DNA from: Nitrosopumilaceae archaeon
GTDB taxonomy: Archaea > Thermoproteota > Nitrososphaeria > Nitrososphaerales > Nitrosopumilaceae
Length of the DNA: 64,000 bases
Reading direction: 5' to 3'
NCBI GenBank assembly: GCA_965214835.1
Contig: CBDCCK010000002.1
Location: forward strand, 160,001 to 224,000
Below the pieces are notes generated by a model that did no database searches, had not been told where the DNA came from, and saw only the letters and a list, made by a program, of their open reading frames with translations. The first letter of the stretch is position 1, and each line of letters opens with the position of its first letter. Positions 10,702-55,878 of this stretch are shown piece after piece. A program made the position numbers and the translations under genes.

Positions 10702-11268
10702 TTAGATGCCTATGCGTATGGTCTCTGTGACGTATTGCAGATTTGTATTTACTGGATCTGTAACTGTTATGTATACTGCTGTTATCGTATACCCGCCACC
10801 TGGCGCCACTCCGAGATTTCCACTTAAAACTCCGCTGAATTGGTTGGATCTACCTGAGGGGATAGATATTCCTCCAGCTGTATCTAGTCCATCGTCTGGG
10901 TCGTCAATATCGTGTGTGACAGATGCTGTACCATTAGTATATGTCCTAGCAACCCCATCAAACTGATCCGGGAGGAAAGAAGAACCACTGATCCTGTCAC
11001 CAAGATATAGTATCTCTTTTCCTGTCAGTCCATCCAAGGCCACCAGCAACACGCTAATATCGTTTCTTCCTGTGTTCTGAATCGTGGCTTCCGCTACAAT
11101 CTGTCCCGGAAGACCCTGCTTGGCAGATCCCTCGATGAATACCGTCTCTGTCGCACCCTCTCCTGCAAGGTCGCCCAGCACTCCTCCTGCGATTAGTGCG
11201 CCTGCGCCTCCGGCTATAGCTACAACAAGCCCAATCCATATGACTGTCTCTTTGGTTACCTGTACCAT
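10702..11268 (-). CDS. Pilin-like protein 2
   Basis: MVQVTKE plus hydrophobic helix, TIQNTGRND motif; TATA TTTATATG ~24 nt upstream; T-rich terminator-like tract downstream. Confidence 0.75.
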   Translation of the reverse strand: MVQVTKETVIWIGLVVAIAGGAGALIAGGVLGDLAGEGATETVFIEGSAKQGLPGQIVAEATIQNTGRNDISVLLVALDGLTGKEILYLGDRISGSSFLPDQFDGVARTYTNGTASVTHDIDDPDDGLDTAGGISIPSGRSNQFSGVLSGNLGVAPGGGYTITAVYITVTDPVNTNLQYVTETIRIGI

Positions 11269-11418
11269 TGATTCCGCAAAACCGTTTTGCATATAAACAC
11301 GCAAATTAGCTATGTTGGTGTCATGTTGGCGGCATGATATTGAGTGTGGATGGTTGTTGTGACGCGGTTAAATGATTAGGTATGTTGTGATGTTGAATGT
11401 CTGATAAACGCTCAAAAG
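11246..11418. repeat. Pilin 5' end plus divergent promoter region, copy 1
   Basis: 11246-11305 matches 16360-16419 and 11360-11418 resembles 16464-16521. Confidence 0.85.
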
Positions 11419-11633
11419 TAGCTTGGGGATTAATGATTGTTGGATTCGCAGTCCTGTCTCTGGGTATCGTTTTGTTCTTGGACTTGTTTGAGCTGGACAA
11501 AGAAAACATCGGTACGGTCTTAATGACGTCAGGGGGAGTCATCATCGGAATAGGTTCCGCGGCATTGATTGCCTCAAGATCATCCAACCGGCAGAATCCG
11601 CCTGCCCGACCGCGCAGAGTCACCCGTCTTTGA
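11397..11633 (+). CDS. Small two-TM membrane protein
   Basis: Two TM helices; TTAAAT ~25 nt upstream. Confidence 0.7.
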   Translation: MSDKRSKVAWGLMIVGFAVLSLGIVLFLDLFELDKENIGTVLMTSGGVIIGIGSAALIASRSSNRQNPPARPRRVTRL

Positions 11634-11746
11634 CCTGTCATGCAGAAACTCACATGTGACTGTGATCTTCACTTCCTGATAATTGAACATGACCTGATCA
11701 GCGATGATCATTCCATGCTTAAATGGCTTCAAGGTCTGTTGAAAGC

Positions 11747-13243
11747 ATGGGACTGTTCTCACGCAAGAAATCAGACATGCACAAATTGTATGAGGCCTGC
11801 ATGAAAGGGGCCGTAACAGATACGCTTACTGCCACGGAGACAAGCACCGCCATCGTCTCACCGTTCTCGCTGTACTGCAGCTATCATGCGGATCCAGACC
11901 TGCAGGATCCGCCGGATCCGTTCCAGCAGGCGCTTTCACGGAAGGGTCTCGAGCACGAGGCCGCAGTAGTCGAGTCGGAGCATCCGGACATACGGGAGAT
12001 ACCGGTCGAGTCGCCGCAGGACGGTTTTATGAAGATGCTTGACTCCATGTCTGCCGGGACCGAAGCTCTAGTGCAGCCTCCCATGTTCTACCTCCCTGAC
12101 TGCATGTACGGCGTCATTGATATCCTTGAAAGGCGAGACGGTGACTCTGTCTTTGGCAGACACCACTATGTAGTGAGGGAGATCAAGGTTGCACTCAACA
12201 TAAAGGAGCACCACCTCATCCAAGCGGCGTTTTACGCAAAGATGATGGGGCTGATCCAGGGCCGCCGGCCTGAATACTTTCTGATAACCGACGGCAACGA
12301 GAATACCATGAGCTTCCGGTATGACGAGTATGAAAAGCCTATGGAGGATGCCATGTCGCTTGCACGGCGCATAATGAAGGGGTGGATTCCGCCTGCAGTG
12401 TACAATACTGGCATCCCACCGTGGACAGGGTACACTAATGAGATTGCCATCCGGAACAACGACATCTCGCTTATTCCACATATCGGGCCAAAGATGCGCT
12501 CACTGCTGCTCGATGCTGGACTCCATACCGTAAACGACGTGGCCACATCGTCGGCAGGGAGGCTCCAGAAGATCAGGGGAATCGGTAGTAAAAAGTCGGC
12601 AGGATACATCGAGTCTGCCCGCGCCATAGACACCGGCCGGTGCGCCAGGATGGGCGGAAATATAGACCTGCCGGAACGGCCTACCGAGATATTCCTCGAT
12701 CTGGAGGGGCTCAATGCCACCTTCAGCAACAGACTGACGGACTATCTGATAGGTGCGGTTGTGAGAAGGGACGGGGAAGCTGCATACCACCGCTTCTTGG
12801 CAGAGAACTGGCGCGAGGACCGCATGCTGGAGGAGTTCCTCGGCTTTATAGATCAGCAGGATGACTATGTCATATACCACTGGCACAGCTATGAGAGGAA
12901 TCACCTGAAATCGATGATGGAAAGGCACGGCATGGACGGACACGGCATGCTTGCCCCGGATGTGATGATTGACCTGCACACCGTTGCCACCGGTGCCTTT
13001 GTGTTCCCGACATACTCCAACAGCATCAAGGACATAGCCAGGTGGATCGGGTTTGAGTGGAGGCACCATGACATGGGTGCGACATCTGCCATCGAAGTAT
13101 ACCTGCGGTATGCCGATGATCCGGAGGCATATGCAGACGAGATGAAGCTTGTCATCGACTATAACGAGGACGACTGCAGGGCCGTCATGGTAGTGAAGGA
13201 CTGGCTGGCATCACGTGCTCCACGCGAGGCGGCTGGCGCATGA
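11747..13243 (+). CDS. TM0106-family RecB-like nuclease (PD-(D/E)XK + HhH + RNase H-like domain)
   Basis: G..HE, G.ID.L...EIK, Q...Y motifs; IPHIGPK and IRGIGSK HhH; FLDLE...YHW..YE...YNEDDC; GCTTAAAT promoter at 11717. Confidence 0.85.
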   Translation: MGLFSRKKSDMHKLYEACMKGAVTDTLTATETSTAIVSPFSLYCSYHADPDLQDPPDPFQQALSRKGLEHEAAVVESEHPDIREIPVESPQDGFMKMLDSMSAGTEALVQPPMFYLPDCMYGVIDILERRDGDSVFGRHHYVVREIKVALNIKEHHLIQAAFYAKMMGLIQGRRPEYFLITDGNENTMSFRYDEYEKPMEDAMSLARRIMKGWIPPAVYNTGIPPWTGYTNEIAIRNNDISLIPHIGPKMRSLLLDAGLHTVNDVATSSAGRLQKIRGIGSKKSAGYIESARAIDTGRCARMGGNIDLPERPTEIFLDLEGLNATFSNRLTDYLIGAVVRRDGEAAYHRFLAENWREDRMLEEFLGFIDQQDDYVIYHWHSYERNHLKSMMERHGMDGHGMLAPDVMIDLHTVATGAFVFPTYSNSIKDIARWIGFEWRHHDMGATSAIEVYLRYADDPEAYADEMKLVIDYNEDDCRAVMVVKDWLASRAPREAAGA

Positions 13244-13299: not shown

Positions 13300-13827
13300 A
13301 CATGTCATCTTGCTCGCAACGTTTAACTGGAACGCTCAGATCCAGACAGCAGGTTTGGACACGGAGTCGTTGGCCATAATTGCACCTGTGGCAACTTTTT
13401 CATCGCATTCATTGCCATTCGGCTGAATTATATCGACAAGCAGTTAGATATCCTGCTGCCGAAGTTCAAGTCAAAATTAGATCGTGCCGACAAGGAGCTT
13501 CAGGCGGAGATATCCAAAAGGAGTCCGAAAAAAGATGTCGTGCTGTCGTTCGCCAATCAAATCGCGTCATATACGAGCATCCGCAACACCATCAAGGAAC
13601 TTTCAAAGATGAACCGCAGGCAGGTTGCGTTGGATGCTGCCGCAATCGTGGGTATGATTACAATTGTAATAATCCACACGTATGGTTATCAGCATCAGCT
13701 AAAAGACGCGGCATCTGTCATTATCGTGCTTGCCATGGCCATGATGTTTTTTTCAGGCTTGACATTCGCTAGAAACTTTCACCGCATGAACCATTTTAAA
13801 AACAAGGCAATGGATCTCGAGGATTAG
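13300..13827 (+). pseudogene. Membrane protein with an apparent 1-nt frameshift in a T-run at ~13396-13400 (start uncertain)
   Basis: LAIIAPVAT and FIAFIAIRLNYIDK lie in different frames; the 3' part is ORF 13540..13827. Confidence 0.5.
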
Positions 13828-14339
13828 AGATCGGGCTCGTCGTATTCCGTACTGAGATACGAATCGGACTCGTAAATCCCCCTGCCTACCTTTGCCTTTA
13901 TCGTGCTTGCGCTTGCATACTGGGGGTACTGAAAGTAGACATCCTGCAGCAGCCGCGACAGGGAATACTCCTGGTATCTTTTTGTGATCGTCATGATCTT
14001 GTTGTGCAGGGCCGTGTGCTCGTGCCTCAGCCTCTCAAAGACCTTCATGCCCTGCTCTGTGACCGCGAACCTGTCCACCTTGAACCCGTAATCGTTTGTA
14101 ATCGGATGTTTTTCTATCTGGCCGCTGCCAAGCGCTCCCTCCATGTCGCCTGCCAGCCCAGCACTGAATGGTCCAAAGTTGCTTGCCCTCCAGTCGTCGT
14201 AGAACCCGACATTGCGAAGTTCCTTGATCTGCATTGCAGAGAGAAATGCGTACTTTTGCAACCTGGTCATGCCCTCCACATAGTCATGCATTCCGATCAG
14301 AAATGCCGGAATCTCCGAGCGCTCAATCATGTGCGGCAC
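13824..14339 (-). CDS. YwgA/SocA(Panacea)-like winged-helix protein, copy 1
   Basis: G.TRLQKYAFL, YDDWRASNFGPFS, VYFQYPQYA motifs. Confidence 0.75.
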   Translation of the reverse strand: MPHMIERSEIPAFLIGMHDYVEGMTRLQKYAFLSAMQIKELRNVGFYDDWRASNFGPFSAGLAGDMEGALGSGQIEKHPITNDYGFKVDRFAVTEQGMKVFERLRHEHTALHNKIMTITKRYQEYSLSRLLQDVYFQYPQYASASTIKAKVGRGIYESDSYLSTEYDEPDL

Positions 14340-16243: not shown

Positions 16244-16317
16244 GGGGGTGTAGTTTAGACTGGATAGAATGCCAGATTCGCAACTGGAGATTGAGGGTTC
16301 GAATCCCTCCATCCCCT
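16244..16317 (+). tRNA. tRNA-like gene with irregular anticodon arm (identity ambiguous: Arg-TCG-like or Ala-CGC-like)
   Basis: Acceptor GGGGGTG/CATCCCC, D-loop TGGA, T-arm GAGGG-TTCGAAT-CCCTC; anticodon arm CCAG-ATTCGCAA-CTGG (4 bp plus 8-nt loop). Confidence 0.75.
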
Positions 16318-16359: not shown

Positions 16360-16521
16360 GTTTCTTTCGTTACCTGTACCATTGATTCCGCAAAACCGTT
16401 TTGCGTGTAAACACGCAAAAGTGTGGCGCGCAAGTGATTGTACCCAAATGGAATCATGGATCATGACGCGGTTAAATGGTTGGATGAATCCGGATGTTGA
16501 ATGTCTCGTAAGCACTCAAAA
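16360..16521. repeat. Pilin 5' end plus promoter region, degenerate copy 2
   Basis: Encodes MVQVTKET on the minus strand then diverges; TATA mutated from TTTATATG to TTTACACG. Confidence 0.85.
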
Positions 16522-16600
16522 TCCGCTTGCAGATCCACACGCCACCGTCCGCACCTGTGTGAATCCGATTGTGCTTGGAAAGACATACAGCACGACTGCC

Positions 16601-17851
16601 CTACTTTGCTTTCTTGATAGTTATTCTGTTGGGCAGTTTCTTGCTCTTGGCTCTGCCCTTTCCATATTTCTGATCCAAAATAAAATTAGCGTCCCTTTGA
16701 GAAATTTCTGCCCCCAGCAGATGGGCAATCAGCCTTCCTGCCGTGCGCGCCGTGCGCTTTCCATACATCACGCGCCCGTTGGTCCTTATCAATATGCCAT
16801 TCCACATGTCGTTGTCCCTGCTCCAGTTGATCCTGTTCAATTTCTTCACAAGCGTATCTTTGTCTGTGTCAGTAGCTCCCAATAAGACACATGCAAGCGA
16901 GTATCCCATGACTATTGAGAGTTGTCCTACCGGGAGTCCCAGAATGGACCTTTTGCGCAATTCGATCCTTGAACTGTCGCCATTCTTTGCCGCGTCCCCC
17001 AACACCTTTTTCCATTCTATTATGCCCGACAGCAGCCGCCTCCACTCTTTTTCTATGTCCTTTTGCATGTCATCTCTTTCCTTGTCATTCATTGTTTCTG
17101 GCCTCCCGACAATTTGAATTGGAAGCGCAGGCAGCAGCTCCCTGTTTGCCTCATAAACAGTAGACATCAGCGTAAACTCTGGTGATTTTTTGTTTAGCGA
17201 ACTGGAGTCGATGTTGACGAGTTTGCGCGGTATGATGCCGCCCTCTATTATTTTGCGCGTTATCACCGCCATGGCATCATCGTCATCTGTGATAAGCTTG
17301 CCTGCCTTTGATGTCGGTTTGGCATACTTGTTTATCTTGTTGAATATGTATCTGGAATCTCCCTTGTCAAATGGAACAATTATTACCACCACCCTGTCAT
17401 CGCCCAGCTTGTTTTCAGGATCGTTTTCAAGAACGCACTGAAATGCCCTTGCTCTGTGCTGGCCGTCAAGCGGTATCAGATGACGGCTGTCATCCTCGAA
17501 TGTGACAAACCCGAGATCCTGTGTAGGGCGGTTGTATGCCGCCGGCAGATCGTCCTTTACGACATCCCTTATGTTGTCAAACCCCATGGCTCCTCCATTT
17601 GATGCCTCTGTCGCCATCACTAGGGCGCCTGAAAACCTCCTGGCGTCTTTTGCAAAATACGGCGCAATGTCCCTGTCTATCCTGCGTTCGTCGAGTTTTC
17701 TCTGAAACTGCTCCTCAAGTGAATAGGTTTCCCAGCCGTCTACCTCTGTCGGGAATCTTATGTTCTTTACCAGATCCGCTATGCGTACAGTCATCACATA
17801 GTACTCGGTGCGTCCGAACCTTCCACGCAGTGCCGGGTATGTGGATGTCAT
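16601..17851 (-). CDS. DndB-like DGQHR domain protein
   Basis: YYVMT, FQRKLD, IAPYF, LDGQHR, FNKINKYAKP motifs. Confidence 0.85.
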   Translation of the reverse strand: MTSTYPALRGRFGRTEYYVMTVRIADLVKNIRFPTEVDGWETYSLEEQFQRKLDERRIDRDIAPYFAKDARRFSGALVMATEASNGGAMGFDNIRDVVKDDLPAAYNRPTQDLGFVTFEDDSRHLIPLDGQHRARAFQCVLENDPENKLGDDRVVVIIVPFDKGDSRYIFNKINKYAKPTSKAGKLITDDDDAMAVITRKIIEGGIIPRKLVNIDSSSLNKKSPEFTLMSTVYEANRELLPALPIQIVGRPETMNDKERDDMQKDIEKEWRRLLSGIIEWKKVLGDAAKNGDSSRIELRKRSILGLPVGQLSIVMGYSLACVLLGATDTDKDTLVKKLNRINWSRDNDMWNGILIRTNGRVMYGKRTARTAGRLIAHLLGAEISQRDANFILDQKYGKGRAKSKKLPNRITIKKAK

Positions 17852-18219
17852 GGTGTGCCACCCGCGTTGTTTGTCAGTGGACGCATCTCCGATATTGCAT
17901 CAGATTCCATGGCGCGCAGGCGCCTCTCTGACACATCATGATATGAGAATGACAGCATGATCTCGTTTCTATACGTCTCAAAGTAATGTCTCAGCAGGAG
18001 ATTGTCCTCTGCAGTACAGTGCTCCCCTAGCCTCCTTCGCAGGTTCATGCTCATTCCAATATAGAGACACCTGCCGCGCAACCAAAAGCAGTAAAGACCT
18101 GGGGATTCATCAATTCCCTCGTATGACATGTACCCAAACGGCACCTGGCCTCCCGTCAGTCCGGATATGGGATCAGACACCGCAGAGACCCTCGCACTCG
18201 CTTGCCATAAAGTCCTCAT
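17848..18219 (-). CDS. GIY-YIG nuclease
   Basis: GLYCF...LYIGMSMNLRRRLGEH...E..AI....P..N; ATGA overlap with the DndB-like gene. Confidence 0.8.
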   Translation of the reverse strand: MRTLWQASARVSAVSDPISGLTGGQVPFGYMSYEGIDESPGLYCFWLRGRCLYIGMSMNLRRRLGEHCTAEDNLLLRHYFETYRNEIMLSFSYHDVSERRLRAMESDAISEMRPLTNNAGGTP

Positions 18220-19810
18220 AGTCCTCCGTATCGCTAAAGTCTACTGTATCCAGTGGTTTTCTGTCCTTGTGAAGATAGCCCTCCCCGTGCAGCGTTCCAC
18301 GAATGTGCGGCACGTCGCGTATTGCCTTGTCTATGAACACCGCGTCATTAAACGAGTCCGGATCGTTTTCTTTTATCCACTTCCACTCCATGTCTGTGTG
18401 GTACGGGCATCCAACGCATGCGCTCCTAGGCAGGCTTTGTCCCGGATACCTTTCGGCAAACCATTCATAGAGCTGCGCCCGTGAAATCTCCATCTCTATC
18501 AACGGGAACCTGTTTGTTATCCATTCGTTTCTGCTCGGCTTCATGCGGTGGGCCTCGTCGGCACTTATTCCCATCCACATCTCTACCTGCATGTTCTTTG
18601 GCGCGCGCTTGCCCGGCTCCAGATTTAACATGTTCCGAAGTTCCCTGTGAATCGGCCGTATCTTGTAATGGTTGGTGCACTGCCTGGCAGCCACCGACCT
18701 GCTGCCGTCCTTGTTTATTAAAAATACCGGCATGTCCAGAAACTTGTCTCCTGCAGGCGTCACACCCTTTAGCACGTTCTCGCGTATGTCTCCTGCCGTA
18801 ACCCTGATCACCTTGTAGGACAGCTGCTTTTCAAGCCAGTCAAGGTGCTTGTATACGTGCGGCGGCTCCCACTTTGTGTCCGCAAATATGGCAACATCCG
18901 GCTTTTCCAGTCCTCCCCATCCGCTTTCTGCCATGAGCGCCATCACTGTTGACTGGGTACCGGCCCCCAAGCTGAGCACCTTGAATTTTTTTACGCCCCT
19001 CAGATACCGGCGGTCAGACACAGATTCGGGCCTGCACATCTGGCGGTCAACTGCGCGGCTTACCAGGCCCCGTGCATCCCCCTGCGTCAGCACATCCAAT
19101 AATCTGGAGCCTGCCTCCAGGTTCAGCTCCCTGGCCACCATCCTGTATCCGTAGCGGTTCATGCCTTTCCCCTCGTTGAGCAGTGCCCTGATGCACTCGG
19201 CCCGGACTGTCGGATTGCGCAGTACCCCGAACTCCATCGTATGGTGATAGTATTCAGGATGCTTGGAGAACATGTCCAGTGCCTGTCGTGTATCAAACGC
19301 CCCGTTTGAGGCCTCTGCTGACTGCCGTGCAATGTGTGCTATCCACCATGTCCTGCCTGAAATGCTTGCCTCGTATATATCCCGTTTCTGTGACGACTTT
19401 GTGAGCCAGTGTTTTTGCACGTTTGATGCCGTCGTCTTTTTTCCACTTATCGGCCAGCGCTCTATCCCGTATCTGTGCAGATATACGTGGTTTATGTATG
19501 CGAGCAGCTCCGGCATCACTGCAAGCTTTGGCGTCATCCCTGTCAGGGAGTTGTAAAAATCAAGCGCCTGGGAATCTGCCTCATGACGTCGATTCACTGG
19601 CTTGTCTGCAGGCGGCATCATCATGATTGGACTGCCGCTGACTGTCACGTCCACACTTTTTCTATAATCGTCAATGCCGTTTTCCCGTAGCAACTTGACA
19701 AAGTCGGCATCCGGGTTCTCGTAATGATCTAGGTTGTCTGTTATGTTGCCCAAAAGCCATTCAAATGCCTCGTCAGAGAACCTGTACAGCTCACTCATTG
19801 CCTGCATCAT
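18173..19810 (-). CDS. Fusion of a DUF6339-like N-terminal domain and a PAPS-reductase-like PP-loop/Fe-S domain
   Basis: N-terminus Y..L...TP..A...ELLAYINH...RWP...RTWW.A; C-terminus VLSLGAGTQS, FADTKWEP, RQCT..YKI.PI, GISADE, SACVGCPYH, ECEGLCGV. Confidence 0.8.
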   Translation of the reverse strand: MMQAMSELYRFSDEAFEWLLGNITDNLDHYENPDADFVKLLRENGIDDYRKSVDVTVSGSPIMMMPPADKPVNRRHEADSQALDFYNSLTGMTPKLAVMPELLAYINHVYLHRYGIERWPISGKKTTASNVQKHWLTKSSQKRDIYEASISGRTWWIAHIARQSAEASNGAFDTRQALDMFSKHPEYYHHTMEFGVLRNPTVRAECIRALLNEGKGMNRYGYRMVARELNLEAGSRLLDVLTQGDARGLVSRAVDRQMCRPESVSDRRYLRGVKKFKVLSLGAGTQSTVMALMAESGWGGLEKPDVAIFADTKWEPPHVYKHLDWLEKQLSYKVIRVTAGDIRENVLKGVTPAGDKFLDMPVFLINKDGSRSVAARQCTNHYKIRPIHRELRNMLNLEPGKRAPKNMQVEMWMGISADEAHRMKPSRNEWITNRFPLIEMEISRAQLYEWFAERYPGQSLPRSACVGCPYHTDMEWKWIKENDPDSFNDAVFIDKAIRDVPHIRGTLHGEGYLHKDRKPLDTVDFSDTEDYEDFMASECEGLCGV

Positions 19811-20597
19811 CCTTGAGTATGTGCCTTAGGGGGTTTTCCAGCAGGTTTTGCGCGATGACGTATGGTGATTCCTTGTATGGGGGCTCATATCCGCGTTTTT
19901 TCAGGCTGTCTGTAAGCGCTTGTGCCCATTTCCTATCCAGGTTGTCTCCAAGTTCCTGTATTGCATGTGTGATGGCCGACATGTAAAGCGATGGAAACAG
20001 CACATGATCCCTGGCGTTCCTCCTTGCGCGTACCCTGTTAAAAGTGGTCTTGTGCATTCTTATCTGTATTTTATCCCCGCTCAGATCAATCCTGTACTGG
20101 TCCTCGCCTACCGACTTTTCTGGTATTATTTGTATGGCTGACCCTATCTTCTGGATGGAATCAAGCGTGAGCTCGTGCGTGTCCCCCATTGCAAGTATGG
20201 CGCCTGCTGGCAGATGGCACCTTATTCCCTTGAATTCCCTGTCGTGTTCTGCTGAGGAAAATGCCTCTATGTTCCGGATGGCTGCTATGTATGGAAGGAG
20301 TGTTATCTTTTCTGCATAGTCTGCCTCTGTGAGAGTTATTGTGGTCTTGGATTCCCTTATCTGAAATACCTGGCGGGCATATGTGCTTGGGCACCTTACT
20401 GCAATGAAAAAGCCTGCGTTGCCGTCAGTTATCTGCTGGCTCAGAAACCTGCTTTTTAGATCTGTCGTCATTTCTATCTTGATGCATCCGTCAAGTGTCC
20501 TCTGCACGTTGCCATCTATACTCGTGTCAAAGATGCATTCTTTTTGATAATCCTGGCGATCCGGTGATAATACCGGGTGCGGTATCAGCGCAGTCAT
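19791..20597 (-). CDS. Conserved hypothetical partner of the GHKL ATPase (PHPVL...DY N-terminus)
   Basis: 268-aa ORF overlapping both neighbours. Confidence 0.75.
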   Translation of the reverse strand: MTALIPHPVLSPDRQDYQKECIFDTSIDGNVQRTLDGCIKIEMTTDLKSRFLSQQITDGNAGFFIAVRCPSTYARQVFQIRESKTTITLTEADYAEKITLLPYIAAIRNIEAFSSAEHDREFKGIRCHLPAGAILAMGDTHELTLDSIQKIGSAIQIIPEKSVGEDQYRIDLSGDKIQIRMHKTTFNRVRARRNARDHVLFPSLYMSAITHAIQELGDNLDRKWAQALTDSLKKRGYEPPYKESPYVIAQNLLENPLRHILKDDAGNE

Positions 20598-22442
20598 CTT
20601 TCAACCGTGCCTCCCATTGCACACTCCACGATGTCATACCCCGGATAGGCCGCCCCCTTGTCGGTCACGACATCCAGTATTATCCGCCTGTCCGGCGCGG
20701 TGTTTATCTCTACAATGTTGTTGTCAAGTGATACTGAGACTCCGTCTGACGGAAAGACGTTCCTTACATCGTGCAATCGCACGGCGTCTTCATCATATGC
20801 CTCCTCTCCTGCAGGCTTTATCATGAATCGGATGCTGCCTGACTTTGGTGTAAAGGCGACCCGCAGCGTGTTTTCAGATTTGATTATGCGCCGATTGCTT
20901 ATGTTGGTGATGCCGTCGTTGATATGCTGTCTGCCGTCGTTGCCGCCGTCATGTCCGCCATCAGATCCATCAGCACTTTCGGCACCACTGCCATCTCCTG
21001 CTTGACCTCCTCCCCCGTCCCCCTCACGTACCGGTTTGGGTTTTTGTTTTGGAAGCTGGCGTTTCTTGTGTTTAATCTCATCAGGTATGCTATCAGGCAG
21101 ATCTTCATCGTCAAATAATGGTAGTATGTCCTGCAGTTCCGTGAGATTTGTCTGGTTTCCGTCGTTGCCTATCTCCAGTATTTTTTGTATGTGGTCACGC
21201 ACCTTGTCTCCCAGGATTTTAAGCAGTTGATCCGTACTCTTCCGCTCGTTGGGATCTGCAATCCTTTCAAATTCTATTGTCTCGTGGGTCGGAGGCTCCA
21301 TCTTACGTATGCGTTCGTCAGTCCTGTCATCTTCGGCGCATATGACTGCCATAAAGTTCCCAATGTCCCCCAGGCGAGGATGGAACGGGTTTTTCCTGCG
21401 TGATTTCTCATCAGTTATCATCATTCCCCTGCGGTTTATGTACGCCACACGGTTGTCCATGTCGTCATCACCTGTCACGGCCTTTAGGGTGAATCTGCCA
21501 AACTTGCCCTCGATTTTTTCCCAGCCGCCATCGGGGCTCTTGATTATATCGTAATAGTGCCTCCTGTTGACATCATCAAAATCGATTTCGTTTAGCGTCT
21601 CGTGTGATATGGTTTTGCTCCCTACTATTACGCGCAGTTTTTTGTCATGTATTGCAGAAAAGAAATTACGCGCCACGGATTTTATTGCCGCCTTTTCCCA
21701 ACCCTGCTCCATGAACCCGATTATGAATATGCCGCTTCCCTGTGAATCAAGCCTGAACGACTTGTCTATGTCATTGCCCATTATCGGCTGGAAGCGCGAA
21801 TCCCTGAGCTCGTTTGACGTGCCAAAACCCACATTCTGCAAATCATGTCTGTTGTTTTTAGGATCACGATGTGTCACCAGCTGGCACCTGGCAATGAATT
21901 TCTCGTACCGGTTCCGGTTGAGGTATCTGGTGGAATATCCGACCATTTTTAGCTGTGAGGCCACATATGGGGCGTTCTTTCCTATCCCATAGCTTCCCCC
22001 GGCAGCACCAACCCCGGTTTTGTCTGGTGTGCCCTCCATGTACACCAGGGCATCCCATTTGCGGTCTGTCAGTCCGGTGGTATTCTTGTCTACTATTTTG
22101 AGTGTTGGAATACGCTTGCTCTGCAGTATTTTCAGTGATTTCTTGAAGAATTTGACGGCATCATCATGACGAACATAGTTCATCTTCTTTATCGACTCCT
22201 TTATGTGCGGTATCAGGTCGTTGCCGCCGATCATGCGGCTTGTAACATCTATCATTTCCATCGTTACGATGACAGGTAGATCAGAACGTCTGCCATCATG
22301 TGCATCCAGCGAGTTCTGTATTACCTCGCGGATGACATGACCCATCACGTCTGCCCTGAAAAGCTCCTGACTACCGTGATTAAAGCCGGTATCGATCCCC
22401 CCCCCCCGTAGGCGGAAAATTCCACTTTATCTTGTTTGTCAT
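20594..22442 (-). CDS. GHKL (HATPase-like) protein; true start at 22442 is out of frame by +1 at a G11 tract
   Basis: REVIQNSLDA, D.NTTGL, GGSYGIGK motifs; upstream MTNKIKWNFPPTGGGIDTGFN joins in frame only with G10 (plus-strand C11 at 22397-22407). Confidence 0.8.
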
Positions 22443-22725: not shown

Positions 22726-22883
22726 ATTGCTTGGAAATCTCCTAGACAATAAAACTCGATGACGATACCTGAAGGGATTGCCGTCGTGGCAGGCACTACA
22801 ATGCCGTCCCTTAACAATCAACCGAAATCCCGCATTTTTCCAATCTAAATATACCAAACATGTTAAGAGATGACGTTGACGTT

Positions 22884-22971
22884 GGCGTTGGCAAGCCCAC
22901 CGAGCTGATGCCTCGGCGAGTGGCCCCGAGACGGGCCGTTCATGCGGGTTCAACTCCCGTCGCCAACGCTG
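22884..22971 (+). ncRNA. tRNA-like structured element lacking a D-arm
   Basis: GGCGTTGGC/GCCAACGCT stem, CCGAG-CTGATGC-CTCGG hairpin, GGCCC/GGGCC hairpin, T-arm GCGGG-TTCAACT-CCCGT; TAAATATA upstream. Confidence 0.55.
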
Positions 22972-24650: not shown

Positions 24651-25487
24651 TCATCTGCCTGCCTCCCTTTGGTGCCGTACGATGAACTCCATCGGAGTGA
24701 GATATCCAAGCGAGGAGTGTATTCTATCGTGATTATAGTCCCTAAAGGCCTCCTTTATGACGTCTGAGGCGTCCTGAAAGGAGCCAAATTCATGGGGCCA
24801 CAGGTATTCCCTCTTGATGCTTCCGTGAAACGACTCTATGTGGCCGTTTTGCTCTGGCGTCCTGTATGCTATGAGCTCGTGCCTGATTCCCAGCTGTTTT
24901 AGGGACTCCCTGAACATACGCGATGTATACTGAGAACCGTTGTCTGTTCGCAGGGTCAGCATGCTGCAGTCCGGATCTGCTGCCGATACCGCATCGAGTA
25001 CGGCCTGAACCGCATTCTCCTTTTGCGCCGTGGTATCAAAGGAGTATGCAAGCCATCTGCGCGAAAAGGCATCAAGTACGTTGAAACAGTAGCACCAGCC
25101 GTCCCCGCCGCAGTCCACGTATGTAATGTCTGCCTGCCACAGCCGGTTGGGGGCATCTGGCCTTGTAAGCTTGCGCGAGGCCCGTATTATGTCGTTTTTG
25201 GTCTTTTTGGGCTCGATCCAGCCTATCTGGCGGTAGATTCGCTGTATCTTTTTGCGGTTTACGCGTACGCCAGTCTCGCGCAATATCTGGTTTGCCATCC
25301 TCCGGGTTCCATACGTCGGCCTTTTCTTGCCTATGGTACGTATGATTGAGACCGTCCCAGAGTCGGCTTTTCTGGTCCGTCTGTCGACGTCCTTCCTGGC
25401 GTAATACCAGGTGCCCTTTGAGACGCCGCAGTATTTCAGGGCCGTGTTGAGGCTCATCTTCTGGTGGCAGATCTGTACGGCATTCAT
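24651..25487 (-). CDS. IS3 OrfB DDE transposase/integrase core
   Basis: WQADITY, TDNGSQY, TPEQNGHIESFH, YNHDRIHSSLGYLTP. Confidence 0.92.
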   Translation of the reverse strand: MNAVQICHQKMSLNTALKYCGVSKGTWYYARKDVDRRTRKADSGTVSIIRTIGKKRPTYGTRRMANQILRETGVRVNRKKIQRIYRQIGWIEPKKTKNDIIRASRKLTRPDAPNRLWQADITYVDCGGDGWCYCFNVLDAFSRRWLAYSFDTTAQKENAVQAVLDAVSAADPDCSMLTLRTDNGSQYTSRMFRESLKQLGIRHELIAYRTPEQNGHIESFHGSIKREYLWPHEFGSFQDASDVIKEAFRDYNHDRIHSSLGYLTPMEFIVRHQREAGR

Positions 25488-25771
25488 CCTTTGCTCAGCT
25501 CCATTGTTTTTTTTAAAGCGTCACAGGCCACTGCATACTCGCCTATGATGCGTTTGAGATTCTGGTTCTCCTTTTGCAGGGCAGCCGCTACCTTGTCATT
25601 CCGGCCCAGGATGGATGCCTTGCCGCCCTCGACGAACCTGTCCATCCACCTGCCAAACGTGGTGGGCGCGATGTTGTGCTTGCGGCACAGCTCGGCAGTG
25701 CTGATGCTGGTCTTGATGGACTCCATCACTATGTCTGTCTTTTCGGCCAATGTGAACTTTTGTTTTTTCAT
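25484..25771 (-). CDS. IS3 OrfA HTH protein
   Basis: FT...K..IV, AELCRKHNI HTH, ENQNLKRIIGE zipper; A8 run near the 3' end is a candidate -1 frameshift site. Confidence 0.9.
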   Translation of the reverse strand: MKKQKFTLAEKTDIVMESIKTSISTAELCRKHNIAPTTFGRWMDRFVEGGKASILGRNDKVAAALQKENQNLKRIIGEYAVACDALKKTMELSKG

Positions 25772-27119
25772 GCCCCGTATGCCCTCCTGTCATATACAAA
25801 TTCTACGCATTTGGGTGGTTCGAATTTTATGGGGTCCTCACCAGCCTGACGACCGGGGAATTGCTGCACGTCTTGCCCATTATCCCCTTGATCACCCTGA
25901 ACCCGGTCTCGATTCCCCACCGACTGCGGTACTCCTCCGGTATCTGCTCAATGACTGCCTCTGCACTTTTAGCAGACATGTTGGTGGCAAAGACCAGATA
26001 CCTGTCGGCTATGGTCTCTTCTGCCTTGTCCTTCTTTGCTGCTGCCGTGCCGTCCTTTTCTACCTCGTCCTTTTCCACAATGACTAGCCTGAATGTGGCG
26101 CTCTTGCCGTCCTTGTTGGTCATTGTATATTTTGATACCGCACCGCGTTCTCCGCGGTCATGCTCCTCTATTGCCGCCACTATCCTCCTGTTCTTGACGG
26201 CAGGCATGATGTAGCTGCCCGTGCTTGTTTCTGCAGCCCTCATGCAGTCCACGTTAAAGAACCCGCGGTCATACAGGAACGTCTTGATCCTCATCCCTGA
26301 TCTGGACGCCTTGCGGATCATTTTAGGCACGAAATCGGCCAGTTTTGCCTCTTTTGGAAGCTGCAGCGAGGAAAGCACGAGGTCAGACCCGTCATCTGAT
26401 CCTATTCCGTGCATGGTAATGTGCGAGAGAAACGTCGACGTGCCGTTCTTGGGCTTTGACTTTCTGGCGATATCCTCCAGGCCCTTGCCATAGTATTCCA
26501 CGTCGGTAACGTCCACTGCCACGACGTCCGTGTTGTGCAGCATGCCTGACCTGCGGGCGCACCTTACCGTATGCTGCAGCATGGAGCTGCACCACTTTTG
26601 CGCATCATCCAGGCTGACGCCCCGGATCGCCTTTAGGATCCAGTCCGGACTAGGCGTACGGCAACTATACGCGCCGCCCTTGGAGGCAGCCCCGTCGTCA
26701 TGCTGCTGCCTGCTGCATTTTGAGGCCCGCCTGCGAAGGTGCGTCACGGCAGATTCTGCAAACATCCTCCTCTCAGACATGAAATATAGAACGCGCAGTG
26801 CGTCGATGTGGTCATACACTGCGTTGCGACTCTTTGAGACGGCCAGCCCGAGCTTGGGAAACCGCCGTCGCAATGTTTTAAACTGTCTCGATGTTATGTC
26901 AAACTGGTGTGCAAACACGTCGTTTTGTGTTACTGACATGATGATGGTTGGCACACCGCCTGATCTATAGTATGATGGTCAAAAAATCTCGGCAAATTGC
27001 GTAATTATCGTGCCTGCAAAAGTACATCGAGGAACTACTGATATGGCTGTGACTCCCATTCCCAGCTGGCAAGGAAATGCGACTTCACGCCGATGTATCA
27101 ATGGAACAACGGAGTTGTA

Positions 27120-27716
27120 TCACGACTCTTTCAAACTTTCAAGTTCTTTGATTACCGCCCCAACTGAGGGGTTCTTGCCAGGGTTTATCCACCGGATGTT
27201 GTTTTCCTCGCACCCCCGGACGCTTTCTTGATCCCGTGTAACCAGAACCATGCCGTATTCCCTGGCATGGTTTAGAACTGAAAAGTCAGACGTCATCGGA
27301 AGCCCCTTCCAGCGCAGTTTTTTCACGCTCTGTGCCTCATAGCATCTTTTTGGAAGCTTGGAGTCAAGCCCGTCATACATTTCATCGAACAGGATTTTGG
27401 TTCTTGGTGGTTTGTGATTCCTGTGTTTTATCGCATCGTCCACGATTGCCGAAATTATAACCGCCAGTACTATGACGATTGGAATGATGCCTGTTCCGAT
27501 GTACGTCAATCCTAATTCTGAAAAACCCTTGGAAATGACTTTCAGTGCTTCCTTGGCATCCCCAGACGCCTCGACAGAATCGATCTCCAATCCTGAACTG
27601 AACGTCTGCAAGGAAATCCCGGAAGCCAGCATCACCGCTCCCACAGTGACTCCAATTGTTGCCAGTAATTGCAAGATGGCAAGCCGCTTCTGAAATTCCC
27701 GTTCTGAACTATCCAT
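27120..27716 (-). CDS. Two-TM membrane protein fused to a DUF5615/Mut7-C-like PIN domain
   Basis: N-terminus paralogous to 32898..33419; C-terminus KILFDEM...SDFSVLNHARE...LVTRD. Confidence 0.7.
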   Translation of the reverse strand: MDSSEREFQKRLAILQLLATIGVTVGAVMLASGISLQTFSSGLEIDSVEASGDAKEALKVISKGFSELGLTYIGTGIIPIVIVLAVIISAIVDDAIKHRNHKPPRTKILFDEMYDGLDSKLPKRCYEAQSVKKLRWKGLPMTSDFSVLNHAREYGMVLVTRDQESVRGCEENNIRWINPGKNPSVGAVIKELESLKES

Positions 27717-27830
27717 GATGATATTTTTACACTCCAGCATGATTTTGCTTATAACCGCAGATTCGTATGCCCCAGCTGGCCATACGGCACATGCAAGGCC
27801 GGCGTCCTTCCACGCGCCACGCATATCAGC

Positions 27831-28250
27831 TCAGAACTTCAGCCATCGAAGCTTTCCCAGCCCGTCAAAGAACTGTCCGTAGATCTCGGATTCTGTGCGG
27901 TTGTTCCTTGGAAAACCTTCAATCATATCCAGTGTTTCCTCCAACACCAGCATCAGCCCAATGTCCTGCTCCGCCGTAAGATGCTCATGAGATATTGCAA
28001 GCATCTTGGCATTCTGCAGCCTGGATCTGAAACCTGCAAGTTTTGTGACTGGCTTAACTGGCATATGGCCGTCACTTCCACCCGTGCCCTTCACTGACGT
28101 CTCGAATTCTTTGAGAAATCCCCTGAGACGGTTTATGCCCCTTCTTCTTCGTCTTGTTCTGGCCAGCAGAAAGACAACTTCGACTGCCATTCCGCCGGCC
28201 AAGCCGCCTATCATTCCCTCTACGATTGAATCTGGTGACAGTTCGAACAT
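27831..28250 (-). CDS. Hypothetical protein with N-terminal TM, paralog of 15073..15459
   Basis: Shared motifs; TM followed by RRRRR. Confidence 0.65.
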   Translation of the reverse strand: MFELSPDSIVEGMIGGLAGGMAVEVVFLLARTRRRRRGINRLRGFLKEFETSVKGTGGSDGHMPVKPVTKLAGFRSRLQNAKMLAISHEHLTAEQDIGLMLVLEETLDMIEGFPRNNRTESEIYGQFFDGLGKLRWLKF

Positions 28251-28395
28251 ACGTACTTCGGAATTTATCATCAAGATTGTTCTTAAGCGACTCTTCGATG
28301 GCTGGATTGCTTACGCTGAGACCGGATTACACACTGCTAGGCCGTACTTCCTGCACGGCATAAGGCGGATCCGGCGGATTGGACGTCATCCCTGG

Positions 28396-28965
28396 TCAGT
28401 GCTTCAGCAGGACTATCCGGCTGATGTCCTTCTCCGTGAACACGATGGCATCGCCTACCTCCACCCACCTCCTTTCGTCTTTTTTCACCTGCAGCAGCTC
28501 CGGGTGTGAGAGTTCCACCTCCCTCCGGTGTTTCTCATCAGTCGACATCACCTTGATCCACCCCCTGTAGACATCCCCCTGGCTGGTGTGTACATCCACC
28601 CAGTCCCCGACGTTGTCAAACGCGAATTTTACCCAGACGCTTCCCCTGTTTACGCCCTTTCTCCACGTGAGGCGCGCAATCTCCCCGAACCCCGTGCCGA
28701 TGACTGCCGCCAGCACAAAGTAGCTGGTTATGACGTCATACTGCAGGATTCTGGTCTCCAGGTCCGATATTGACTGGAACTGCCAGATTGATGCAAAGGG
28801 AACAAAGATGATCACGCTGGAAATCAGGCTCCACAGGGTGGTCTGCAGGTTGTTGAAAACGAATTCGTATGAGGCCCTCCAGATGAACAGCCTAAATGCA
28901 AGGAACCCCGGGGCCAGGAGTATTATGATCGTGTATGCCTCTGTGAGGGACGGAATTTCTGCCAT
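28396..28965 (-). CDS. DUF6338-like membrane protein
   Basis: LLAPGFLAF N-terminus, three TMs, W...F.....WV.V....G..Y.G soluble domain. Confidence 0.7.
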   Translation of the reverse strand: MAEIPSLTEAYTIIILLAPGFLAFRLFIWRASYEFVFNNLQTTLWSLISSVIIFVPFASIWQFQSISDLETRILQYDVITSYFVLAAVIGTGFGEIARLTWRKGVNRGSVWVKFAFDNVGDWVDVHTSQGDVYRGWIKVMSTDEKHRREVELSHPELLQVKKDERRWVEVGDAIVFTEKDISRIVLLKH

Positions 28966-29858
28966 GTCGTGCTTTAATCTGACGCATGGTCAAAGTCGGT
29001 ATTGGCGGGTTTTGGGCGCTTGGGTTCGGACGCTGTCACCGACATGGCGATCTTGTATTGTGATTTGGCATTCTTTTTTTCCTGGTGCTGGCTATCTTTT
29101 TCCACGTACATAATGCATGTCACTGCTATTTATTTTCACCGACGACCGGCTTGTAGCCATCTGGCATGGCACAATCCATTTTTGCTGCAACCTCAAATAA
29201 AAATGGCGAAATCCTGTAATTTCTACTGCGCATACTACGACAATGATTGTTGTTCATACCTGCCAAACCACAAGCCGTCTCTGAAATTCCTGCCCTGAAT
29301 CATTCATGACCGCACCTTCACTCTCCAGCCCGCTTCAAACCCAGATCCACAGATTTGGCAGATATTTTTCCTATGATGTCTGTCAATCCAGATTCAAACT
29401 CCCTTGAGACGTCCCCCGCGCCGCTTGTCGCGTGACATGCCTCGTGAAGCAGCGTTCCCGCATAGTCCTCCAGACTCCCAAGCTGTCCGCGCTTGATGAC
29501 TATTCTCTTTTTGTCCGGCTCCCACAGGCCTACGGCCTCCACTCCCGACTCCTCCCTTCGCATGGTCTCAGACACTGCTATCTCCCCGATGATGCCAGGT
29601 CTTCCGCCGGCCAGGTCAAAGATGGCCCCCGTCCTGTCGAAGACCTTGCGCTCTGAGGAGTCCAGCTCCGACGGTTTTACGAACTTGAACTCAAAGCTGT
29701 CGTTCCATTCCGTGTTGTACTGCCCGAGATCCCTCATTACGTTTCCCGACATGTCCTGCTCCCCGCGTATCTTTTGAACGGTTGTCTCCGGCTAGACTGT
29801 TGCATAACTCCGACTAGAGCCCAGCCAATCCTTCCGGATCACTACCGGTGCTCGGTTC

Positions 29859-31073
29859 CTACATGGCAGTCACCGCCTCTGCGATCCACTTGTTGTACAG
29901 CCATATCCTCAGCTTTACCTCCTGCACTATGTTGGACCACTTGAGGGCCTTTACGTCCTCGCCGAACATGCGCTTTATGGCCGATATCACGATCTCGACG
30001 ATCCATCTACTGCCAAAGCCGACCGTGCTCTTCCAGTACCGCAGGTTCTCCTGCCTCTCCTCCTTTGACAGGTTGCCCACCGGCACCTCGGGGCCGCCCC
30101 CGAGCTGCCATCGCACCAGCCGGCCCCACTTGTCGCCGGCGCCCTTGCCCCTTGCAGTACAGCTTGTCAAAAGCCGTATGAGGGGCATTACGTCGTACTT
30201 GTAGCACTCGGCTACGTTCTTTCTAGAGCCGTATGCGCCGTCTGCAAGCAGGATCTTGCCAGGTGTAATCTGGTCCTCGCCGGTGCCGAGCATATCTAGC
30301 GGCGATCTCCCGTCTGCAAGCATGTTGGGGATCTTGATTGTATCCACGATGTCAGGGCAGTCCTGCTCCTCTTCCTTCTTGATGCTCTTGATTGTATCCA
30401 CGATGTCAGGGCAGTCCTGCTCCTCTTCCTTCTTGATGCTCTTGATTGTATCCACGATGTCAGGGCAGTCCTGCTCCTCTTCCTTCTTGATGCTCTTGAT
30501 TGTATCCACGATGTCAGGGCAGTCCTGCTCCTCTTCCTTCTTGATGCTCCTGGCCGCCTCCTCAAGTAGCGCAGGCAGCTCCGTGCTGTCGCCGACTGCC
30601 TCGCTTGTGACGGACACTGCCAGCACCTGCTTGGTGTCTGCGTCTACCATCAGGTGCATCTTGACGAACCCGCGCCTTACCTTCCATTTCTTGCGTATCC
30701 ACTCGCCCCGGTTGTGCTGCTTGAGGCCCGTGGCATCGGCTATCATGACCAGGTTGTTGGACTTGTCGCGCACGGTAATTATGTGCTCTGCAATGTCGAC
30801 GTCAAGCTTCTGCATCCTCCTGAATATCGTGGTATAGCACGGCGAGTCCATACCCCTTAGCATTTCCCCGAACATGCCTGACAGCTGCCTGTACGGTATC
30901 ATCAATGCGGTCCTGAGGGCGGCCGCGGCCATTATCATGCCTTCCGCGTACAGGAACGGGGCGCCCTCCTTGTGGCGGTTGGCATCCTTGAGATCCTTCT
31001 CCCAGCCGGGGTCGTGCTTGACGACCAGGCCGGCTCCCCTCTCTACGTACTTTGCGTTATCCGTGTGTGTCAA
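29859..31073 (-). CDS. IS5-family transposase with internal 18-aa tandem repeat
   Basis: DATGLK..NRGEW, ADGAY, RWIVE...SAIKR. Confidence 0.9.
   Translation of the reverse strand: MTHTDNAKYVERGAGLVVKHDPGWEKDLKDANRHKEGAPFLYAEGMIMAAAALRTALMIPYRQLSGMFGEMLRGMDSPCYTTIFRRMQKLDVDIAEHIITVRDKSNNLVMIADATGLKQHNRGEWIRKKWKVRRGFVKMHLMVDADTKQVLAVSVTSEAVGDSTELPALLEEAARSIKKEEEQDCPDIVDTIKSIKKEEEQDCPDIVDTIKSIKKEEEQDCPDIVDTIKSIKKEEEQDCPDIVDTIKIPNMLADGRSPLDMLGTGEDQITPGKILLADGAYGSRKNVAECYKYDVMPLIRLLTSCTARGKGAGDKWGRLVRWQLGGGPEVPVGNLSKEERQENLRYWKSTVGFGSRWIVEIVISAIKRMFGEDVKALKWSNIVQEVKLRIWLYNKWIAEAVTAM
30332..30549. repeat. 54-bp tandem repeat, four copies
   Basis: Encodes SIKKEEEQDCPDIVDTIK four times. Confidence 0.95.
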
Positions 31074-55348: not shown

Positions 55349-55878
55349 TCCTATTGTTAGGCATCAATTTGTTTATAAAAACATCAGATTTGCAGCATTG
55401 AACGTACTTGTACATGCAAAGGCGGGCAAACGACACCGTCCCGTAATGCTCAGATATGGCGCGCTGCAGCTCGCTGACCTTTCTGTACACTATCCCACTG
55501 AAAACGACAGGCTTGCCTAGGCTCCGGCATTCTTCCACGACATTGGGGTGCGGCGATCCCCCCCCCCCCCGGGATCATTGTCAGCCTGACGTCTAGATGG
55601 CCCGCCGGATATTCTGCGACGGTAGCAGCTCCGTGCACGCTCCACATGTAGCAAAAGACTGCAACCCTGTCAGACTTCGCGCAGCGCCTCCAGACATTGT
55701 ATGAACTGCACCGACGTAAACGATCCCGTAAACGTCATGAACAGATTCCTGCCGTCTTCTGCGATGCTTCCAAACACGGCCACCTTTGTGTGGTCCACGA
55801 ATACGACGCCACGCTTCTGGTGCCGACCGGACCCCATGCGTATCTGTCGTATGAACCCTGCACGAAGAACGCCTCATC
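55349..55878 (-). mobile_element. IS630-family transposase 3' remnant (inverted copy of ~57281-57790)
   Basis: Near-identical reverse complement (DEAFFVQGSYDRYAWGPVG), multiple frameshifts. Confidence 0.8.

Follow-up and report, generated by a model that had tools for sequence, protein, structure and literature searches.

Which kind of system is encoded by a compact five-gene operon in an archaeon whose genome carries a canonical phosphorothioation cluster elsewhere? The operon lies on the minus strand at 16601-22442 of the window, a 64,000-nucleotide stretch of a Nitrosopumilaceae genome (contig CBDCCK010000002.1, positions 160,001 to 224,000), and consists of five overlapping, co-oriented open reading frames (ORFs), here called genes A to E in the order A-B-C-D-E. 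The listed ORFs span 16601-22348. An ATGA is shared at both the A/B (20594-20597) and the D/E (17848-17851) junctions, and the coordinates give overlaps of 20 nt for B/C and 47 nt for C/D. A preliminary description made from the letters of the DNA had reported this arrangement; the ORFs, the ATGA overlaps and every motif that it named were present in the translations. On balance, we favour the view that the operon is an epigenetic defence system of the BREX/DISARM/Dnd kind with a phosphorothioate-type flavour, in which D and E would form the effector and a G tract in gene A would act as a phase switch. The features of the operon are as follows.

20594-22442, minus strand: gene A, putative GHKL-type ATPase, PDC-M33A; two frames split at a G tract (listed ORF 20594-22348, 584 residues)
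22397-22407, minus strand: G11 homopolymer (C11 on the plus strand) in gene A, out of frame; candidate phase-variation switch
19791-20597, minus strand: gene B, 268 residues, PDC-M33B
18173-19810, minus strand: gene C, whole, 545 residues
19025-19810, minus strand: N-terminal half of gene C (residues 1-262), DUF6339/PDC-M33C, all-helical
18173-18982, minus strand: C-terminal half of gene C (residues 277-545), SspD-like PAPS-reductase/PP-loop domain with a three-cysteine site and a cysteine-bearing tail
17848-18219, minus strand: gene D, 123 residues, small GIY-YIG nuclease
16601-17851, minus strand: gene E, 416 residues, divergent DndB-like DGQHR (ParB/Srx-superfamily) protein

Gene C carries the motifs SLGAGTQS (residues 280-287) and CVGCPYH (465-471) and a terminal ECEGLCGV. 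A match to Pfam DUF6339 was above the cut-off (1.6e-18), residues 7-256 matched the PADLOC model PDC-M33C (2.4e-21) and residues 277-497 matched PADLOC SspD (5.4e-16; profile positions 2-202 of 277). SspD was the sole writer model in PADLOC to match gene C; PADLOC matches to the five proteins, and NCBIfam matches to C, were counted at E<0.1. In an AlphaFold2 (AF2) model with a predicted local distance difference test score (pLDDT) of 90.6, the first 260 residues were mostly helices. A Foldseek search with this model detected CysH (6vpu), [4Fe-4S]-LarE (8cp4), GMP synthetase, TtuA and TrmU, with a probability of 1.00 to CysH, LarE and GMP synthetase at an E value of about 5e-4. All of the PDB fold matches listed were PP-loop-type enzymes, and the C-terminal half of the modelled protein has a PP-loop (adenine-nucleotide alpha-hydrolase) fold. 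Residues S280, G282, G284, Q286, S287, C378, C465, C468, C539 and C543 were invariant among 61 sequences, and SLGAGTQS and the cysteines were also invariant in an 18-sequence alignment. The three invariant cysteines and the cysteine tail would fit sulfur transfer. For the DUF6339 half, no usable match was found in the Atlas, and a word-based protein search with residues 1-262 recovered the same fusion family only (53 proteins). The proposal that a PP-loop domain is fused to DUF6339 was thus confirmed by the SspD and DUF6339 matches, and the accompanying idea that DUF6339 is a DNA-recognition domain found no support. The genome also encodes two stand-alone PAPS-reductase paralogues, at C2:129038-129871 (minus strand) and C2:2023106-2023879 (plus strand), which are 32-34% identical to the writer half of gene C; one adjoins a ParB_N/HTH_ParB protein and a transposase, and the other lies near a Cas3-HD-like protein.

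Gene A carries EVIQNSLDA and GGSYGIGKNA in its translation and matched PDC-M33A (1.2e-72). Searches against Pfam gave no HATPase match and no family at all. A profile-profile comparison (hhalign) with the HATPase_c_3 family gave a probability of 66% and an E value of 5.7e-5 across motifs I, II and G2, and E8, N12, D15, G92, G118, G121 and G123 were invariant in the alignment; the comparison with Topo VI-B gave an E value of 0.83, and the gene A profile had no significant match among PDB sequences. Gene B matched PDC-M33B (3.3e-38) and no Pfam family. Its AF2 model (pLDDT 89) is beta-rich in the N-terminal half and helical in the C-terminal half; a fold search with it gave 0 PDB matches at E<=0.001, with weak beta-sandwich matches only, and in the Atlas gene B fell into unnamed clusters only.

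At E<=0.001, a protein search with gene C found 427 relatives. Identities among the best 120 were 49-72%; most of these matches were full-length, and their annotation was 'DUF6339 family protein' at most. Judged by these alignments, the DUF6339-PAPS-reductase fusion is a conserved family. Genomic neighbourhoods were then compared by scanning one genome per species, which gave 552 confirmed stretches; the best 80 loci were analysed, their ORFs being clustered and one representative annotated per cluster. The two domains were fused in 45 of the 80 loci and encoded by adjacent genes in 4, and the writer stood alone in 31. Gene order and next-gene counts for the fused form were taken from the loci that continue past C (L001-L044, n = 44). 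Upstream of the fusion, B was present in 44/44 and A in 43/44 (L042 lacks it), always in the order A-B-C. The preliminary description had seen a modification-restriction module here, and its conservation was borne out by this order in 43/44 fusion loci.

Downstream of C, an effector module followed directly in 34 of the 44 loci, and the other 10 had varied or unannotated neighbours. A small nuclease and then a DndB-like protein were found in 11/44, including all 6 archaeal loci, the nuclease being a GIY-YIG protein of the window type, a member of a second, more distant GIY-YIG group or an HNH protein (L044). Full GmrSD N+C enzymes were present in 9/44 (PADLOC Orf5, 4e-91; SspE, 2.5e-19), GmrSD_N-only proteins in 7/44, and a superfamily 2 (SF2) helicase with an HATPase_c_3 (MORC-type) ATPase and a PLD nuclease in 5/44. 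PbeA (1.4e-169) and PbeC (2.2e-52) followed in 2/44, and three more loci had a Pbe pair within 10 kb. The preliminary description had put forward a GHKL motor and a nuclease that would attack unmarked DNA; what the comparison of loci shows instead is A-B-C as a fixed core with swappable effector modules, several of which are phosphorothioate-associated (SspE-like, PbeA/C). The available part of PMC9239217 describes the PbeA/PbeC and SspE-like families as phosphorothioate-associated, and that of PMC12914056 reports DUF262 genes in dndC neighbourhoods. Two variants of the core were also seen. In L017, L031 and L043, a second, distant A-like ATPase and two conserved genes (clusters 30 and 29) adjoin A-B-C and may be a paralogous triad. 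In L080, a single contig carries two systems in tandem, one with B, DUF6339 and the writer as separate genes and the other with A, B and an unfused DUF6339 gene.

The window genes D and E occupy the effector position. Gene D contains the motif GLYCFWL...CLYIGMS...RRR, and its match to Pfam GIY-YIG (21.6 bits, 2.6e-4) was just under the cut-off of 22.6. Among 14 relatives, Y43, Y53, R63 and E105 were invariant and N117 was at least 90% conserved; in this alignment the predicted protein has the GIY, YIG, Arg, Glu and Asn elements of GIY-YIG catalysis. Gene E has DGQHR at 129-133, invariant among relatives, and matched Pfam DndB PF14072 (136.8 bits, 1.2e-39; cut-off 29.1), PADLOC DndB (4.6e-31) and the DGQHR domain TIGR03187 (90.8 bits, above 58.85). 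Its score of 114.3 bits with the DndB equivalog TIGR03233 did not reach the cut-off of 328; the canonical dndB, encoded elsewhere in the genome, scored 395.7 bits on PF14072. The GmrSD-like partners in the other loci bear the related motif DGQQR (10/12 proteins in cluster 7 and 7/7 in cluster 10), and DndB and GmrSD N-domains are both assigned to the ParB/Srx superfamily in the available part of PMC12839542. Two points tell against grouping gene E with these enzymes. A profile-profile comparison of gene E with the GmrSD N-domain gave a probability of 8.5% over one 36-column stretch, so that the kinship of the two rests on the DGQ[HQ]R motif and on the superfamily assignment in the consulted part of that paper. 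Furthermore, canonical DndB is described there as a regulator and not as an effector, and the preliminary description likewise cited DndB as a DGQHR regulator. In our view, a place as the sensing partner in an effector divided over two proteins is likelier for gene E than regulation of the DndB type. On the evidence of motifs and gene position, D and E can be read as a two-chain form of the one-chain, ParB-like-plus-nuclease effectors GmrSD and SspE.

The core and the writer each occurred without the other. A tblastn search of plasmids with gene A gave 20 records; five were examined, and the whole triad was readable in three, matching the PDC-M33 models (1e-209, 8e-82 and 2e-94) far more strongly than the window did. 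A Priestia plasmid encodes A, B and a DUF6339 protein of 252 residues, unfused, as a unit of three genes next to an unrelated Sau3AI-type restriction-modification (R-M) pair, and on Lactococcus pS127 the triad stands alone with no adjacent writer. On Ligilactobacillus pMP1046A (NZ_CP007647), A-B-C is followed by a Type IIG/DrmMI/PglX-like methyltransferase (900 residues, 2.8e-301) and then by a DEAD helicase and a GIY-YIG nuclease, all co-oriented and tightly packed. The position of this methyltransferase directly after DUF6339 indicates that one slot is filled in some loci by a PAPS reductase and here by a methyltransferase, a parallel to the PglX/BrxP exchange in BREX. The preliminary description had raised PP-loop and methyltransferase partners of the triad as a comparison to be made, and both were observed, the former fused in 45/80 loci and the latter on the Ligilactobacillus plasmid. 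For the 31 stand-alone writers, the next genes were a helicase-ATPase-PLD set in 15, D and E in 7 (L046, L050, L051, L059, L061, L065 and L067), GmrSD_N, ParB_N and a C5 methylase in 1 each and others in 6. A four-gene unit of a lone PAPS reductase, an SF2 helicase, an HATPase_c_3 protein and a PLD nuclease recurred in L045, L048, L049, L052, L053, L055-L057, L060, L062, L064, L068, L069 and L074, and this PAPS reductase-helicase-MORC-PLD unit is a candidate for a system in its own right.

Since the core is found without a writer and the writer without the core (31/80), each can work alone, and the core may not concern writing. This counts against a single system and raises the possibility, which we regard as unlikely, that two independent systems share one operon: A-B-DUF6339 would be a complete defence by itself, with no part in writing or reading the mark, the PAPS reductase, the GIY-YIG nuclease and the DndB-like protein would be a minimal modification-restriction cassette, and the fusion would reflect co-inheritance only. 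The seven loci in which the writer and D+E occur alone, the solitary triad of pS127 and the Priestia triad beside an unrelated R-M pair would all be explained in this way, and TdpC alone is reported as sufficient for phosphorothioation (available part of PMC12914056, citing An et al. 2025). The covalent fusion seen in 45/80 loci and the directly neighbouring genes of the 4 split forms are harder to reconcile with independence, as are the methyltransferase in the same slot after DUF6339 on NZ_CP007647 and the variation of effector modules beside a fixed A-B-C. Phase tracts are found in A and not in the writer, which fits a need for A in the harmful arm.

Viral homologues of the writer half provided information on its substrate. 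At least 585 relatives were confirmed on viral contigs; these were 41-51% identical, stand-alone and about 270 residues long. Among the best 80 viral loci (L106-L185), a C5 DNA methylase was present in 25, lying directly upstream of the writer homologue in 12, a family A DNA polymerase in 31 and a UvrD/PcrA-like helicase in 23; no relative of A, B, DUF6339, D, E or GmrSD was found in these 80 loci with the seeds used. This setting of the viral homologues, amid genes for the replication and methylation of DNA, suggests that the substrate is DNA.

These data bear on a further explanation, a distinctly improbable one in our judgement, in which the PP-loop domain makes another ATP-dependent mark, or acts on tRNA or a nucleotide, and the GmrSD-type neighbours are ordinary Type IV nucleases. 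PP-loop enzymes catalyse many reactions, among which phosphorothioate chemistry is the one that we infer for gene C, and the fold matches include GMP synthetase, TtuA, TrmU and LarE. The Pfam PAPS_reduct score of gene C (19.2 bits) was just under the cut-off of 22.5, and gene C had no NCBIfam match and no PDB sequence match. A canonical Dnd writer is already present in the genome, and GmrSD-family proteins are established Type IV enzymes that restrict modified DNA (available part of PMC12839542). All of these findings weaken the assignment of phosphorothioation. It is strengthened by SspD being the sole writer model matched, by the phosphorothioate-associated PbeA/PbeC and SspE-like partners (PMC9239217, as far as available), by three invariant cysteines and a cysteine tail suited to sulfur transfer and by the phage homologues in DNA replication and methylation modules.

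The sequence of gene A contains an apparent switch. Reading from the ATG at 22442, a run of eleven G is encountered at 22397-22407 and is followed by a stop. A six-frame read-through with PDC-M33A matched profile positions 9-494, up to 22411. Gene A orthologues start with KW.FPPTGGG..GFN..ELF...E..QNS.DA; in the window, KW.FPPTGGG lies in the frame of the ATG and GFN..ELF..E..QNS.DA in the frame of the 584-residue ORF, with the junction in the tract, and G11 falls on the Gly-Gly-Gly conserved in this N-terminal motif. One G less would fuse both frames. Two phenylalanines with at least 90% conservation among 33 relatives are missing from the listed ORF. Position 22442, given in the preliminary description as the end of the operon, is the true ATG of gene A; the gene is out of frame there, a consequence of the G11 tract that had been overlooked. 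G8, G10, G7, G12 and G13 tracts were detected inside gene A of relatives, and among six relatives with a split gene A, five (L001, L002, L032, L035 and L040) were split at G/C tracts and one (L034) elsewhere. Both ON and OFF tract states occur when genomes are compared. In L040, a Dehalococcoidia metagenome-assembled genome (MAG), a C11 and then a C42 tract lie inside gene A at its split point (L040:7819-7872).

The tract was checked in the contigs of three public runs from three samples, where G11 was covered with 0 gaps and 0 mismatches. Because identical G11 tracts were present in the contigs of all three runs, G11 is not an error of this assembly. The three runs belong to one study and may include the source sample, and contigs conceal minority tract lengths, both of which count against the favoured view. 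An out-of-frame gene A in an island rich in insertion sequence (IS) elements means that decay is possible. On the view that the locus is a decaying remnant, which we consider very unlikely, the frameshift would be a loss-of-function mutation in an island overrun with IS elements, leaving the system dead. Consistent with decay are the out-of-frame consensus of the three runs, the three transposase genes at 24651-31073 and the clear decay of two relatives (L038 and L042). Against it, B, C, D and E are intact and all invariant residues are kept, the break falls exactly in a homopolymer at the conserved GGG motif, like breaks at tracts occur in five other genomes, and such tracts are strongly over-represented genome-wide. 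From the sequences compared, G11 is a candidate slipped-strand phase switch of gene A.

The genome contains 59 G/C runs of at least 10 bases, compared to 7.6 expected from base composition, with a peak of the length distribution at 10-12. Short ORFs and intergenic stretches hold most of the 59 tracts, and the genes described here come from a selected set, as 10 tracts were chosen for lying in, or at the start of, long ORFs; both points limit the case for regulated switching. A Pfam family was assigned to 9/10 of the chosen ORFs, which encode three glycosyltransferases, two S-adenosylmethionine-dependent methyltransferases, one sulfotransferase, one Mrr endonuclease, one DNA methylase fused to an Mrr-type nuclease, one cupredoxin-domain protein (1688 residues) and one protein with no family; 8 are glycosyltransferases, methyltransferases, a sulfotransferase, Mrr or a DNA methylase-restriction endonuclease fusion. 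Such a gene repertoire is that of bacterial contingency loci, and the tract set of this archaeon is a candidate set of contingency loci. No publication on archaeal poly-G switching was found in the literature on homopolymeric phase variation, judged by titles. Read on the plus strand, the runs are of C at each end of the large contig and of G in between, a replichore-like strand switch. Examples of tracts are at C2:1500821, C2:2237300 and C2:2654147 and, in the window, at 22397-22407 and 55558-55570.

The precedents of the BREX type 4 and Tdp writers, together with ten Aminotran_5 matches in the genome, led us to propose that the PP-loop domain of C is the writer, that A, B and the DUF6339 half form a core and that D and E are the effector. 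Gene content, domain identities, the conserved order, the exchange of modules and the tract with its reproducibility are observed; the model is conditional with regard to the substrate, the chemistry, the protein contacts, which genes restrict and actual switching of the tract. In this model, the PP-loop domain of gene C would use ATP to activate a phosphate of the DNA backbone, and sulfur would replace an oxygen. A cysteine desulfurase whose gene lies at another place in the genome would supply this sulfur, which would pass via the three-cysteine site and the cysteine tail of gene C. A, B and the DUF6339 half of C would act as a core that carries the writer along DNA and is probably needed for restriction too. 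D and E would be the effector, the counterpart of the one-chain GmrSD/SspE enzymes found in the same position elsewhere. G11 in gene A would be a slipped-strand switch, with OFF as the majority state of the population. Such a switch would be safe on one of two conditions only, and either fits: the harmful arm requires gene A, or the effector depends on the mark to act.

The host genome (3.22 Mb, two contigs, 99.95% complete) has archaeal small-subunit and large-subunit rRNAs, and the nearest homologues of C are in Nitrosopumilaceae/Cenarchaeum-type MAGs; the host is an archaeon of a sponge-type microbial community. DUF6339 was present in 3/401 sampled genomes of the host phylum, this one included, all three in one family and with open frames of about 550 residues, and full-length C in 3/40 relatives of the host. 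In a quick, unrooted tree of 42 fused proteins, the archaeal sequences formed a clade (SH-aLRT 100) among Chloroflexota branches. A single archaeal clade in this position makes one transfer between domains likely, in either direction, and as far as the tree goes the fusion likely moved once between bacteria and archaea.

There is also a broader reading, which we offer tentatively and hold to be possible rather than probable. The operon would be a fifth, GHKL-based architecture for writing phosphorothioate after dnd, ssp, tdp and BREX type 4, in which a phage-type PAPS reductase was fused to DUF6339 of an otherwise methylation-linked core, passed between bacteria and archaea in sponge-type microbiomes and is run as one of dozens of poly-G phase-variable contingency loci. 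If this were true, the operon would be for an archaeon what phase-variable restriction systems are for bacterial pathogens. A fifth writer set with another ATPase and two proteins of no known fold would reveal which parts of the machinery are truly required. A swappable writer, with a methyltransferase on the Firmicutes plasmids where this operon has a PAPS reductase, would be a natural experiment on how epigenetic defence cores come by their marking enzymes. Many viral 'cysH' genes are commonly read as sulfur-metabolism genes, and the occurrence of phage writer homologues among DNA replication and methylation genes bears on that reading. Finally, if the tracts switch, the poly-G excess in archaeal defence and glycan genes would mean that contingency loci also occur outside bacterial pathogens.

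The operon is inside a region of lower G+C at about 10-35 kb of the window, and the three transposase genes lie in the same region. A further feature is located about 280 nt past the 3' end of the operon.

16244-16317, plus strand: tRNA gene (Rfam tRNA, 52.3 bits; ARAGORN)

This tRNA gene is possibly an island landmark outside the system. A second ARAGORN prediction, a 'tRNA-Ile' at 22875-22969, was rejected, as Rfam gave no confirmation. Two copies of a segment of about 190 nt lie 5.1 kb from each other, at 11246-11430 and 16360-16534, the second one immediately 3' of gene E; in the three runs, contigs covered 16400-16526 at several times the depth of the operon, and the genome holds weak partial copies only. 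Elsewhere in the window, overlapping minus-strand ORFs of 1061 and 987 residues (4036-7221 and 7218-10181) had no Pfam or PADLOC match, a 506-residue protein at 11723-13243 (plus strand) has Cas4-like, HhH and RNase_H_2 parts, and a Type I specificity-subunit-like fragment lies at 13824-14339 (minus strand). A minus-strand ORF at 28396-28965 gave a weak DUF6338 match (25.8 bits; cut-off 26.5), and five tandem copies with a 54-nt period are present at 30271-30594, inside a DDE transposase-like ORF (29859-31073).

Four enzyme sets are reported in the available part of PMC12914056 to write phosphorothioate into DNA, and the operon is here set beside these and other candidates. It resembles DndBCDE(A)-PbeABCD in its PAPS-reductase writer, its DGQHR protein of the DndB family and the PbeA/PbeC genes near the core in 5 relatives; it differs in having no DndD or DndE at the locus. 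Gene C had no match to the DndC equivalog TIGR03183 (cut-off 290.4 bits), the sole match in the genome being at C2:1379925-1381220. That gene is part of a cluster at C2:1378843-1395130 with dndB, dndC and dndD above cut-off, a gene for a DndA-like desulfurase and, after these, PbeA-like and PbeC-like genes. The earlier statement that DndD, DndE, SspB/C and a cysteine desulfurase are absent was correct for the locus; it had missed the full canonical dnd cluster, including dndB, dndC, dndD and a DndA-like gene, elsewhere in the genome. By gene content, two putative writer systems coexist in this genome.

The likeness to SspABCD-SspE lies in the SspD-like writer domain, in the next gene of relatives, an SspE-like DUF262-DUF1524 protein with DGQQR, and in D and E, which together resemble an SspE enzyme split in two. 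In contrast to that system, the window locus lacks SspA, SspB and SspC and has a putative GHKL ATPase instead of a P-loop ATPase; DUF4007 (SspB) had no match in the genome, in which the control model likewise matched nowhere. SspE relies on the host's own mark (available part of PMC9646914). Tdp, as described in the available part of PMC12914056, is similar in that one protein writes and others restrict, an arrangement like that of the 31 loci with a lone writer. We also weighed MADS as a name for the triad and dismissed it: no mad model matched the five window proteins, and the MADS papers mention neither GHKL nor DUF. The PADLOC mad2 model matched a plasmid methyltransferase.

The closest likeness of the triad is to PDC-M33, a PADLOC candidate, whose three models were matched in the same order by A, B and the N-terminal half of C. 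The window differs in that C adds an SspD-like writer domain of about 270 residues and two effector genes come after it. No paper was found on PDC-M33 or DUF6339 (supplementary candidate tables lay outside this search) or on a defence combination of a PAPS reductase and a GHKL ATPase; the core is a listed but unstudied candidate, and its sulfur-type form was in no paper found. The claim that the combination is not a named system thus holds in that there was no complete match to a named, validated system, and needs amending in that the triad corresponds to PDC-M33 A/B/C. Judged by defining parts, the operon is neither Dnd, Ssp, BREX type 4 nor MADS. With regard to BREX, none of the five window proteins matched a Brx or Pgl model in PADLOC, and BrxC, PglZ and BrxL were not found among them. 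The writer is fused to DUF6339 here and to DUF4007 in BREX type 4; the window ATPase is putatively of the GHKL type. In BREX type 4, BrxP, with its PAPS-reductase domain, and the BrxC NTPase suffice for phosphorothioation, given a housekeeping cysteine desulfurase (PMC12914056, part available). By analogy, the operon would share with BREX type 4 a multi-protein core in which the PglX methyltransferase has been swapped for a PAPS-reductase-domain writer fused to another domain.

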